Source: Eubacteriales bacterium (lineage in GTDB: Bacteria > Bacillota > Clostridia > Oscillospirales > CAG-272). Taken from it: DNA of 41,589 bases. A program made the position numbers and the translations under genes. Positions 30,756 to 34,109 of this stretch are shown in pieces. Each line of letters begins with the position of its first letter. Position 1 is the first letter of the stretch. Location of the stretch: the NCBI GenBank assembly GCA_045633025.1, contig JAZQXS010000058.1, positions 1-41,589 of the forward strand, read 5' to 3'. The notes under the pieces were generated by a model. That model saw only the letters and a program-made list of their open reading frames with translations. It did no database searches and was not told the origin of the DNA.

Positions 30756-31088
30756 ATGAATTTAAGCCGTCGCCAAACCGCTCTCCTGAAGCGCATCGGT
30801 CAACGACGTGTCATCAGGACGAACAAGAAAAGCATTGACGATCTCGTTTACCTGTACGATCTCAGTCTGATCTCCGTCGTCAGTTGTCCGAAGGAAGACG
30901 ACTACTATTTTGAAGCATCCGGTCTTACCGAGAAAGGCAAGGCTGTTCTCGATGAAAGGATTCTGTATTACAGAGACCGCCGCGTTCCTCACGTGGCCCT
31001 CGGTCTATCTGTAGCGGCTATCCTCATATCTCTCGCCTCTCTGGTTCTCCAGTTCCTCGGCCTCAGCCTGCCGCCATTTTCAGTATGA
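30756..31088 (+). CDS. Lysogeny-strand membrane-anchored protein (110 aa), possibly wHTH-like N-terminus plus C-terminal TM
   Basis: AGGGGG RBS. C-terminal VALGLSVAAILISLASLVLQFLGL. Runs antisense to the early lytic transcript. Confidence 0.5.
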   Translation: MNLSRRQTALLKRIGQRRVIRTNKKSIDDLVYLYDLSLISVVSCPKEDDYYFEASGLTEKGKAVLDERILYYRDRRVPHVALGLSVAAILISLASLVLQFLGLSLPPFSV

Positions 31089-31329
31089 TCGATGCTACCG
31101 CGAGCAGGATCGCCACCACGTTCAGTACAATGCACACGTAGTACACCTTCTTCGCGTCCGTCGGGAACCGCTCCCACGTTGGGATCTCGTGCCCCCGTCC
31201 GAATCGCTTACGGATCTGCTTGTTGATCCATTTCATTTCCTGTTTGGTTTCCACCACTAACGACTCTTGGAAAAGCCCCAGATATTCGTCGTAGTGTTCC
31301 GAGAAGTATCTGTCCTTTTTCCGACTCAT
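31063..31329 (-). CDS. Small C-terminally membrane-anchored protein (88 aa), first ORF of the early transcript
   Basis: GGAAGGGAAG RBS. C-terminal YYVCIVLNVVAILLAVASIIL. Its 3' end overlaps the convergent 110-aa gene by 26 nt. Confidence 0.5.
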   Translation of the reverse strand: MSRKKDRYFSEHYDEYLGLFQESLVVETKQEMKWINKQIRKRFGRGHEIPTWERFPTDAKKVYYVCIVLNVVAILLAVASIILKMAAG

Positions 31330-32066: not shown

Positions 32067-32120
32067 ATTTCCGCAAATATCCCCTATTATTTCGCAAATA
32101 TCCCCCTGTTATTCCGCAAT
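32067..32120. repeat. 22-bp tandem direct repeats (about 2.5 copies) ATT(T)CCGCAAATATCCCC(C)T(A/G)TT
   Basis: Copies at 32067-32088, 32089-32110 and a partial one at 32111-32120. Confidence 0.8.
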
Positions 32121-32146
32121 AAAAAAGCCCCGCCGTATGGCGAGGC
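32121..32146 (-). terminator. Rho-independent terminator after toxN (gcctcgccatacggcggggc + tttttt)
   Basis: Sits 13 nt after the toxN stop. Identical 26-mer to 33021-33046. Confidence 0.75.
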
Positions 32147-32158
32147 TGTGTGTATGTA

Positions 32159-32659
32159 TCATTTTGATTTGGGCTTGTGGTTTGGATCGTAACGCTTGCA
32201 CGCCCGCTCCAGCTTCTTGAAATCGCAAGAAATGCTTGCCAAGAACTTGTTGTCCCCGGACACAACGTCAAAGTACGTCTGTTGCGCGTGGAACAGTATG
32301 CTTGCCTTGGAACGGTTGCAGATCGTGATCTGCCTTTGCAAAAGGTTTCTGTATTTATCGTCGGACTCTTTGGAGATGTCGTACTCGATCAGAGCCTCAT
32401 CGGGAACGGGTATCATGTTGTTGAATCCCAGCAGCCCGTAGTTTCCGCCGTCCAGCTTCATGATGTGCTTCCCTGCCTTGATCTTGGCGTGGTTTGGCTT
32501 CGGAGATTCCATCGGCACGAAATACTTAAATTTCCCAAAGGCGAACACCACACCCACGTAAGGTCTCTTGGCGTTCTTATTGTACTGCACGCGGGAGTCT
32601 GTCCCGTTCAGATATCGCACGTAGTGATCGGTGATTCTGTAAATTCTCAGGTTTTCCAT
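32159..32659 (-). CDS. toxN: Type III toxin-antitoxin toxin, ToxN/AbiQ-family endoribonuclease
   Basis: 166 aa. GGAGAG RBS before ATG 32659. Blocks RIYRITDHYVRYL, RPYVGVVF, KYFVPMESPKPNH, LGFNNMIPVP, YRNLLQRQ and CDFKKLE align with remembered ToxN (KFYTISSKYIEYL, AFIGIVL, KYLAPLTSPKKWH, MIPI, YKRMLYKQ, CNFSLLE). Confidence 0.85.
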   Translation of the reverse strand: MENLRIYRITDHYVRYLNGTDSRVQYNKNAKRPYVGVVFAFGKFKYFVPMESPKPNHAKIKAGKHIMKLDGGNYGLLGFNNMIPVPDEALIEYDISKESDDKYRNLLQRQITICNRSKASILFHAQQTYFDVVSGDNKFLASISCDFKKLERACKRYDPNHKPKSK

Positions 32660-32676
32660 TGTCTCTCCATTTAGTA

Positions 32677-32710
32677 ATGGCGAGACGGAGAACCGCCTCG
32701 CCATTTTTTT
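32677..32710. terminator. Hairpin atggcgag...ctcgccat between the RNA repeats and toxN; the T7 run lies on the plus-strand side
   Basis: 8-bp outer stem plus 3-bp inner stem. On the toxN sense strand it is preceded by A7 and lacks a U-tract. Confidence 0.45.
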
Positions 32711-32712
32711 GA

Positions 32713-32820
32713 CTCCCTACTTACGGCAAGGGATCTCCGCTTTTTTAAGGCTCGTATCACGGAACAAGCTAACCGCTTTTTTAAGGACGAACTTACGGCA
32801 TCGTCTATCCGCTTGGATGG
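32713..32820 (-). ncRNA. toxI: Candidate type III antitoxin RNA (ToxI-like): about three tandem 36-nt repeats
   Basis: Period is exactly 36 nt; ccgcttttttaagg starts at 32737 and 32773, with degenerate copies at 32701 and 32809. On the sense strand each unit starts CCTTAAAAAAGCGG, and GCCGTAAGT recurs. Located between the promoter and toxN. Confidence 0.7.
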
Positions 32821-32883
32821 AGGTGATGAGAGGACGTGGGAGCACGTTCACTATCACGTTGCGTGGATTTTCTCCACGCCTAT

Positions 32884-32912
32884 ATTATATTACAAAGCCC
32901 CGCAAATGTAAA
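32884..32912 (-). promoter_or_regulatory. toxIN promoter TTTACA-17-TATAAT
   Basis: Minus strand: -35 at 32907-32912, -10 at 32884-32889. An A/T-rich UP-like tract lies upstream. Confidence 0.7.
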
Positions 32913-32980
32913 CCCCCATTTTGCACAATTTTTTATTCCCAAACTTGTAAAGATTAACCGCATTTTGCCACCTCCGGCAA

Positions 32981-33011
32981 AATGGTAAAGCCCCCGCCTC
33001 TCGGCAGGGGC
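32981..33011 (-). terminator. Second insulating terminator gcccctgcc-gaga-ggcgggggc + tttaccatt
   Basis: Read on the minus strand, just downstream of the 33021-33046 terminator. Confidence 0.5.
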
Positions 33012-33020
33012 GTGGCAAAC

Positions 33021-33046
33021 AAAAAAGCCCCGCCGTATGGCGAGGC
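33021..33046 (-). terminator. Terminator identical to 32121-32146, upstream of the toxIN promoter
   Basis: Perfect 26-nt direct repeat aaaaaagccccgccgtatggcgaggc, exactly 900 bp from its twin. Confidence 0.7.
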
Positions 33047-33111
33047 ATACAAAAGTATGTTTACACATACTTTTTGTTGAAAATTACTATAAAAAATTCC
33101 CTCAAAAGGTA

Positions 33112-33140
33112 TTGACAAATATCTCTCGGTGTGGTATCAT
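33112..33140 (+). promoter_or_regulatory. Sigma-A promoter TTGACA-17-TGgTATCAT with no downstream ORF
   Basis: -35 at 33112-33117; extended -10 at 33132-33140. Confidence 0.6.
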
Positions 33141-33146
33141 GAAGGC

Positions 33147-33230
33147 GTAGGAGCTACCTGCAACGGTCGCTTCCTCGGTTTTGGTTAAAGATAACCGCAC
33201 TTGGGAAAATGGGGGCGGTTATCTTTTTTT
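33147..33230 (+). ncRNA. Candidate ~85-nt small RNA (promoter-to-terminator unit)
   Basis: Terminator gataaccgc-N16-gcggttatc + ttttttt at 33190-33230. No ATG with an RBS in between. Confidence 0.45.
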
Positions 33231-33294
33231 GTTACCCAGTACCAGTGATACGATTGCGATGACCATCTTTGCGGATTTGTCAATATTTTTTGAC

Positions 33295-33322
33295 AAAAAA
33301 CACCCCGCCTCTCGACGGGGTG
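33295..33322 (-). terminator. Rho-independent terminator of the 66-aa gene
   Basis: Minus strand: caccccg-N8-cggggtg followed by tttttt. Confidence 0.7.
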
Positions 33323-33370
33323 CAGCAAACCTCACGCTCCTCTCCAATATAACGCATATATGAGCAGGCA

Positions 33371-33701: not shown

Positions 33702-34109
33702 ATGTACCTCGACAAACTGAATGCCATGAAAAAATCCACCAATACCCGGACAAAGACTCTCGCGGATGCCGTCCATCGGTCAGAACGCACCGTAGGACGT
33801 ATGCTGGCAGGCGAGGCAGGCATCGACATGAGCGAGCTCCAGACCATGGTCTCGGTCATGGGCGGCACGCTGGATGACATTTTTGACGGGTCCGACATGC
33901 GCCTCCCCCGCCCTGAGGTGGAGACACTCAATAAGCAGATTGAGGCTCTGACCGAGGAAATCGGCATCTTAAAAGCAGAAAACGCCATGCTGCGGGACAA
34001 AAACACCGCCCTCGATACAGAAAACGACAAGCTCCGCCTCACCTTGGCGCATAAAGAGGAGCTTCTGACGCTCCACTCCTACTATATGGGACTTCGTAAA
34101 GGTGACTGA
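33702..34109 (+). CDS. HTH plus coiled-coil protein (135 aa) coupled to the integrase (candidate directionality factor or regulator)
   Basis: AAGGAGA RBS. TKTLADAVHRSERTVGRMLAG is HTH-like. Leucine-zipper-like C-terminus. The stop lies 2 nt before the int ATG. Confidence 0.45.
   Translation: MYLDKLNAMKKSTNTRTKTLADAVHRSERTVGRMLAGEAGIDMSELQTMVSVMGGTLDDIFDGSDMRLPRPEVETLNKQIEALTEEIGILKAENAMLRDKNTALDTENDKLRLTLAHKEELLTLHSYYMGLRKGD

Follow-up and report, generated by a model that had tools for sequence, protein, structure and literature searches.

A probable ToxIN-type toxin-antitoxin cassette in the lysogeny region of a gut Oscillospirales prophage

The cassette and its ToxN-family protein

The stretch of DNA analysed here (the window) is an entire contig of 41.6 kb (41,589 nucleotides; JAZQXS010000058.1) within the 2.57-Mb draft genome of an Eubacteriales bacterium (assembly GCA_045633025.1). 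Between the repressor and integrase genes of its lysogeny region lies a minus-strand cassette containing a promoter (32884–32912), a leader, three ToxI-like RNA units (32715–32822), an inter-gene hairpin, and toxN (32159–32659), a gene for a 166-aa ToxN/AbiQ-family endoribonuclease toxin that is preceded by the ribosome-binding site GGAGAG (32663–32668, read directly from the sequence) and followed by a terminator (32121–32146). Judged by its anatomy, the fold of its protein, and the covariation of its RNA, the cassette is very probably a genuine ToxIN-type type III toxin-antitoxin module, and it is an ordinary, previously unrecorded member of the known ToxIN family. A reading of the window made from the sequence alone (the sequence-only reading) had proposed a complete type III ToxIN/AbiQ cassette at this position, and protein family, fold, RNA covariation, and genomic context all agree with that proposal.

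A protein search for homologues gave 834 matches at E ≤ 1e-10, and 157 loci were fetched, comprising 80 from gut Clostridia genomes (Faecousia, Acutalibacteraceae, Oscillospiraceae, and others) and 77 from IMG/VR viral contigs. The closest relative phage is locus L082, with a ToxN that is 97% identical. ToxN was found in only one of 61 related genomes and is therefore an accessory gene. Among deposited phages, homologues occur in four records, each with <40% identity, and a DNA search returned zero matches; this ToxIN clade is hardly represented among them. The cassette thus adds a well-supported ToxIN clade that is carried on integrating phages of uncultured gut Oscillospirales.

The toxN product matches the Pfam profile PF13958 (ToxN_toxin) over its full length (profile positions 1–159 of 159) with 168 bits against a cut-off of 25, and it matches the PADLOC AbiQ model with 150 bits, in agreement with its earlier assignment to the ToxN/AbiQ family. 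The Pfam and PADLOC matches are exclusively to ToxN/AbiQ, with none to the CptN and TenpN families, whose loci have repeats of ~45 nt or 37–51 nt, and no CptN chain was among the results of a sequence search of solved structures. That search recovered ToxN_Bt (4ATO, 1e-21), AbiQ (4GLK, 7e-15), and the ToxN entries 7D8O and 2XD0, with the ToxIN_Pa structure as a distant match (6.5e-07), and a profile built from 27 relatives improved the matches to a range of 3e-27 to 5e-16. Structure prediction with AlphaFold2 (predicted local distance difference test score 79; predicted template modelling (TM) score 0.79; low confidence in a loop at residues 55–76) gave a model whose top four Foldseek matches were 4ATO, 4GLK, 7D8O, and 2XD0, with TM-scores of 0.68–0.71 and probability 1.0. 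Besides these four structures, the Foldseek search against the PDB gave no match below E = 1.

The active site of ToxN_Pa consists of Tyr29, Lys33, Thr52, Ser53, and Lys55 (PMC5086642). When aligned with ToxN_Pa, the window protein places Arg32 at Lys33, Ser52 at Ser53, and Lys54 at Lys55, and all three residues are invariant across the 27 relatives. Codon changes between toxN and its closest relative comprise 11 synonymous and five non-synonymous substitutions, and the gene appears to be under purifying selection.

The toxI array, the inter-gene hairpin, and the leader

Tandem repeats of ~34–36 nt directly upstream of the toxin gene were the criterion for ToxIN loci in Blower et al. 2012 (PMC3401426), where they were found with Tandem Repeats Finder. 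The window carries three such units directly upstream of toxN on the minus strand: U1 (32787–32822), U2 (32751–32786), and U3 (32715–32750), spaced by exactly 36 nt, which bears out the count of about three and the 36-nt period given by the sequence-only reading. Its common unit start holds for U2 and U3, which begin CCTTAAAAAAGCGG, but not for U1, which begins CCTCCATCCAAGCGG and has no A-tract at its 5′ end; the first unit lacks the A-tract across relatives as well. At default settings, Tandem Repeats Finder did not detect the array and reported unrelated 22-bp repeats instead, because the units are only ~55–60% alike outside their conserved boxes, where the stems differ. This is the only such array in the window genome.

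Related loci (those with at least 50% ToxN protein identity) contain three units in 114 of 123 cases and two in the remaining nine; 98 spacings measure 36 nt and 131 measure 37 nt. Each unit follows the same order, namely an A-tract, a G[C/A]GG tetramer, 3 nt, a 5-nt arm, a loop with CC[G/T], and the complementary arm; pairing of the tetramer with the loop makes the fold a hairpin-type pseudoknot (GCGG/CCGU). U1 thus has GCGG, the stem GACGA/TCGTC, and the loop TGCCGTAAGT, while in U3 the pseudoknot stem would be formed by GCGG (32740–32737) with CCGT (32726–32723) and the hairpin stem by TCCCT (32733–32729) with AGGGA (32718–32714).

Covariation supports both helices of the predicted pseudoknot. 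All 191 distinct units make at least four of the five stem pairs, and they do so via 55 arm combinations; the window itself illustrates the pattern, as the stems of U1, U2, and U3 differ in a compensatory fashion (GACGA/TCGTC, GCTTG/CGAGC, and TCCCT/AGGGA). The tetramer and loop change together, with GCGG/CCG in 168 units, GAGG/CCT in 23, and no mixed combination. One clade has arrays made up entirely of the GAGG/CCT form, and several others have it in a single unit, the first; it therefore arose more than once. Across 114 units, 92% of cells pair compared with 75% in shuffles, and double-sided changes number 195 compared with 59; none of 500 shuffles matched the observed values, and controls in which the partner was slid along the sequence gave 23–48% pairing. 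The 221-nt toxI precursor as a whole folds with a z-score of −5.9. The comparative data therefore yield a concrete RNA model, in which an A-tract cleavage site is followed by a pseudoknot stem (GCGG/CCGU) and a hairpin of 5 bp.

Between the array and toxN lies a hairpin of 12–13 bp (32676–32705, minus strand), a predicted attenuator, and a hairpin occupies this position family-wide. The sequence-only reading had noted that its T-run stands on the antisense side, a correct observation from which it drew two possible consequences, a mode of attenuation different from other ToxIN systems or a stop for antisense read-through from the repressor gene. Comparison across the family gives a simpler account. 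On the sense strand the T-run is an A-tract, AAAAAAA (32704–32710), which extends into the hairpin, and at least five A are present among the 8 nt preceding the hairpin in 62 of 72 non-redundant relatives, while at least four T are present among the 8 nt following it in 59 of 72. Because it is conserved, this upstream A-run is best taken as the start of a last, partial unit and as the predicted final ToxN cleavage site, and no unusual attenuation needs to be invoked. The sense fold is also the more stable one (−23.9 kcal/mol compared with −18.4 for the antisense, in which a G–U pair of the sense stem becomes an A–C mismatch), as it is in 50 of 71 family hairpins, with the antisense favoured in 14. 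Sense-strand stability and the conserved A-run together indicate that the hairpin was selected as part of the toxIN transcript. A main role as an antisense terminator was thus rejected, although the hairpin may have a secondary bidirectional role, and the apparent terminator on the wrong side is resolved by the comparative data.

Upstream of the array, the proposed sigma-70-type promoter TTTACA-17-TATAAT (32884–32912) was confirmed, with 11 of 12 consensus matches. It is identical in the relative L001/L082, and a −10 box stands at the equivalent relative position in other family members. Between this promoter and U1 there is a leader of ~55 nt, predicted to fold into two hairpins, H1 (GCGTGGA-GAAAA-TCCACGC; 32861–32879), which lies at the 5′ end of the transcript or close to it, and H2 (GTGATAG...CTCATCAC; 32823–32857). 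Among 60 non-redundant relatives, 57 have exactly two hairpins between the −10 box and U1 (mean z-score −3.5), and 39 share the GTGA...TCAC frame seen in H2, so that the leader is conserved by shape and not by sequence. U1 probably stays joined to the leader after processing, and the simplest reading of the leader is as a putative protective 5′ structure. We know of no equivalent of the two-hairpin leader in published descriptions of ToxIN_Bt or other classical ToxIN systems.

Just upstream of the −35 box (32913–32945, minus strand), short conserved motifs are visible by eye in the window and at the same place in relatives. They read TTTTTGTGCAAAAT in the clade of the window and CCTACATCTTG in other clades, and could represent a regulator site or an UP-like element.

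Several observations weigh against the assignment to ToxIN. The position of ToxN_Pa Thr52 is occupied by Glu51 in the window protein, and the equivalent of Tyr29 is uncertain owing to a 4-residue indel, with Tyr26 close by. A-tracts flank only two of the three units on both sides, the inter-gene hairpin has a weak sense U-tail (three T in 8 nt), and the array matches no Rfam family at E up to 10, with no ToxI match either in a 2.9-kb stretch or in the 251-nt array alone. The last point weighs little, since ToxI sequences vary between ToxIN loci (PMC5086642). Glu51 is invariant in the 27 relatives, and the exchange is therefore a trait of the clade and not a sign of decay.

The same differences could be taken to mean that the cassette is a decaying relic, its toxin inactivated by the Thr52-to-Glu exchange and its repeats drifting. 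An active site with one or two of its five positions different from ToxN_Pa, and units diverged so far that Tandem Repeats Finder does not see them, would fit such a history. However, the open reading frame is intact and full-length with mostly synonymous substitutions, the differences between units are compensatory and keep both helices, and no other part of the region is as conserved as the non-coding block of promoter, leader, and toxI. We therefore regard decay as highly improbable.

Proposed mechanism and relation to known systems

A working model for the cassette can be proposed by analogy with ToxIN_Pa, ToxIN_Bt, and AbiQ (PMC5086642, PMC7781912). The promoter would yield an excess of precursor RNA, with the inter-gene hairpin passing only part of transcription into toxN. 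ToxN would then cleave the precursor at the A-tracts into unit-length pseudoknots, fully freeing U2 and U3 and leaving U1 attached to the leader, and the pseudoknots would assemble with ToxN, head to tail, into a closed complex that keeps the toxin inactive. An infecting phage that halts host transcription or degrades RNA would prevent replenishment of the short-lived ToxI. The freed ToxN would cut A-rich RNAs, the infection would abort, and the lysogen population would be protected.

As the role of the cassette, protection of the host from other phages appears most likely. ToxIN_Pa and AbiQ first came to light through abortive infection (PMC5086642, PMC7781912). Alternatively, toxIN might act mainly as a device for prophage addiction or stabilisation that kills or arrests cells losing the prophage, a role that could coexist with the first. 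ToxIN_Bt is reported to promote plasmid retention (PMC4615649), and a cassette within the lysogeny module would be expressed from the repressed prophage. Against this, a prophage that is integrated and has attP and an integrase would hardly need post-segregational killing, and we consider addiction an unlikely main function, although the sequence does not separate it from abortive infection.

Of the characterised systems, the closest is ToxIN_Bt from the Bacillus thuringiensis plasmid pAW63 (4ATO), which gives the best sequence match (1e-21; 3e-27 with the profile) and the best fold match (TM-score 0.71). Both loci have the order promoter, repeats, hairpin, toxin; the repeats number about three, measure 34–36 nt, and carry an A-run where one unit meets the next. 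The differences are considerable, in that protein identity is ~28–30%, the unit is 34 nt compared with 36–37 nt here and unrelated in sequence, the array of the window is preceded by the two-hairpin leader, and the carrier is a Bacillus plasmid as opposed to an integrating phage of gut Clostridia. The AbiQ/antiQ system of Lactococcus lactis (4GLK) belongs to the same Pfam and PADLOC family and combines 2.8 repeats of 35 nt with A-rich cleavage and abortive infection (PMC7781912), whereas it is plasmid-borne, matches the window protein at 7e-15, and has an unrelated RNA sequence. The reported cleavage sites are A^AAAA for ToxN_Bt and A^AAA for AbiQ (PMC7781912).

The founding member, ToxIN_Pa from Pectobacterium atrosepticum pECA1039 (2XD0/2XDB), has 36-nt units that form hairpin-type pseudoknots; a terminator separates toxI from toxN, and the complex is a 3:3 triangle (PMC3401426, PMC5086642). 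It differs from the window cassette in having 5.5 identical repeats instead of three diverged units, in cutting AA^AU, and in carrying threonine at the active-site position where the window protein has glutamate. Arrays of 36 nt × 5.5 for ToxI, 34 nt × 2.9 for ToxI_Bt, and 35 nt × 2.8 for antiQ have been described (PMC5086642).

Prophage setting, flanking duplications, and a neighbouring small-RNA unit

Homologues of the integrase or the XRE-type repressor (20–45% identity) are encoded within 4 kb of the cassette in 34 of the 157 loci. In three look-ups with Pfam-labelled neighbours, all in unrelated prophages, the cassette again has CI/XRE-type genes on one side and, on the other, a gene for a tyrosine integrase or a serine recombinase. 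Guanine and cytosine make up 49% of the cassette and 57% of the contig. Compared with L082, the lysogeny region is strongly mosaic and the cassette is its best-conserved block: nucleotide identity reaches 98.8% for the promoter–leader–toxI segment and 96.4% for toxN, while it is 71% for the integrase, 82% for a small open reading frame, 89% for the repressor, and 75% for the switch. Two neighbouring genes have no DNA match in L082, one encoding a 135-aa helix-turn-helix/coiled-coil protein upstream of the integrase (33702–34109) and the other an 88-aa membrane protein (31063–31329). The view of the cassette as a separate, insulated unit between repressor and integrase, with its own promoter and terminator, is supported by this comparative context.

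In 14 of 99 non-redundant loci, the cassette lies between two closely placed copies of an exact direct repeat of 21 nt or longer (maximum 77 nt), compared with 0 of 668 controls in which the same geometry was moved by 1.5–3 kb. When mismatches are allowed, such repeats are found in 19 of 107 loci, at lengths of 21–130 nt and identities of 83–100%. One copy closely precedes the cassette promoter and the other closely follows toxN, with left copies ending 258–384 nt upstream of the ATG and right copies starting between −9 and +145 nt from the stop. The repeated sequence is specific to the locus: it can be a terminator, or it can come from the beginning of a membrane-protein gene or the 5′ end of a gene for a serine recombinase. 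Loci with flanking repeats include L016, L018, L034, L049, L052, L040, L150, and L004. In L049, an intact serine recombinase gene follows toxN, and the left copy is a truncated piece from the 5′ part of that gene. Where near-identical cassettes sit in different flanks, their homology ends at the repeats or close to them, as in L015 and L018, which are homologous from −407 to +58.

Because flanking duplications recur, the unit is independently acquired cargo, and their recurrence across the family, along with the conservation of the cassette between mosaic phages, upholds the idea of a portable module in a general sense. In this respect the cassette resembles phage morons, which are independent units running from promoter to terminator that have been added to phage genomes (PMC3594210). 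It has its own promoter and terminator and a guanine and cytosine content below that of the phage, the prophage would express it, and it is present in some related phages and contexts but not in others. What differs is that its family has recurrent flanking duplications. To our knowledge, such duplications are not part of the definition of a moron.

The duplications may have arisen either by out-of-register recombination of related phages or by re-entry of an excised circle. In a stronger form of the second possibility, the ~0.9-kb toxIN unit would itself be mobile and enter lysogeny modules duplicatively, for example as an excised circle, so that the repeats around about one in seven cassettes, including a 26-mer in the window, would be footprints. 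The slot in the window would then be a short series of terminator-bounded cassettes, the small-RNA unit described below and toxIN, exchangeable between phages. This is a tentative and rather unlikely proposal. The excess over controls, the placement of repeats relative to ATG and stop, and the loss of homology at the repeats would all be expected of dedicated mobility, whether a circle with one repeat copy re-entered phage genomes by Campbell-type entry at the shared segment or the unit inserted with a long target duplication. Yet 81–86% of loci, the closest relative included, have no such repeat, the sequence and length of the repeats vary by locus, and no recombinase belongs to the unit. The longer repeats are 93–97% identical, as expected for two parental phages recombining out of register, and the upstream copy in the window belongs to another unit. 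Dedicated mobility as the source of the repeats is thus doubtful.

Searches of genome, viral, and metagenome contigs yielded neither an empty site nor a circle junction. A query of joined flanks found no empty site in 301 genomes of the family, exact junction patterns of the L150 group were absent from viral and metagenome contigs, and the L018 repeat gave none in viral contigs. Close relatives of the integrase and the small open reading frame were likewise absent from viral contigs, and repressor relatives in the search were all ≤54% identical and uninformative. The flanking duplications offer a handle on how defence cargo moves between temperate phages.

In the window, the bracketing repeat is the 26-mer AAAAAAGCCCCGCCGTATGGCGAGGC, with exactly two occurrences 900 bp apart, copy B (32121–32146), which is the toxN terminator, and copy A (33021–33046). 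No such duplicate is expected by chance (100 shuffles), and both copies score as minus-strand terminators, so that the perfect repeat, its distance, and its terminator character all stand as first described. The 26-mer is nonetheless not a conserved boundary of the cassette, and this interpretation was rejected. The copy B homologue in L001 has a different loop, and the segment 33012–33300, which includes copy A and an orphan promoter-to-terminator unit, is missing from L082, where the cassette directly adjoins the terminator of the small open reading frame. A second terminator had been proposed at 32981–33011; it is a real hairpin, aligning with the small-ORF (open reading frame) terminator of the related phage and forming an imperfect copy of 33300–33323 (family D1), but the terminator scan did not list it because its T-tail is weak.

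The core of the orphan unit (33092–33234, plus strand) consists of TTGACA-17-TGgTATCAT followed by a strong terminator. It is a multi-copy element of the host genus, present in 18 of 61 related genomes at up to 10 copies per genome and 72–86% identity, with no Rfam family match. In three other genomes (G016, G005, and G017) the unit is preceded by AAAAAGCCCCGCCGYRTGGCGAGG, as it is in the window, and since the same hairpin precedes the unit elsewhere, copy A belongs to this small-RNA unit and not to toxIN.

Read in the sense of toxN, the order is T2 (33323–33300), the small-RNA unit, T1 (33046–33021), T2′ (33011–32981), toxIN, and T1 (32146–32121). The slot thus holds two units, each bounded by the same hairpin pair, and the 26-bp bracket is best read as the scar of two independent terminator-bounded units, small-RNA and toxIN, stacked in one slot. 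The T1/T2′ junction shares GTTTGC with the L082 sequence after T1 and before T2, which would fit an out-of-register join at microhomology.

Directly upstream of copy A, a perfect 10-bp A/T-rich hairpin, AAAAGTATGT-GTAA-ACATACTTTT, lies at 33050–33071 on the minus strand. Together with copy A it resembles the 3′ end of a small minus-strand transcript, a resemblance that accounts for weak matches to small RNAs in Rfam. Over the whole window, Rfam gave no family at gathering score, and weak matches to GP20-b and CRISPR-DR were rejected as chance. Between the repressor stop and the toxN terminator, a 22-bp tandem repeat of 2.4 copies (32069–32119) is 92.6% conserved in L082.

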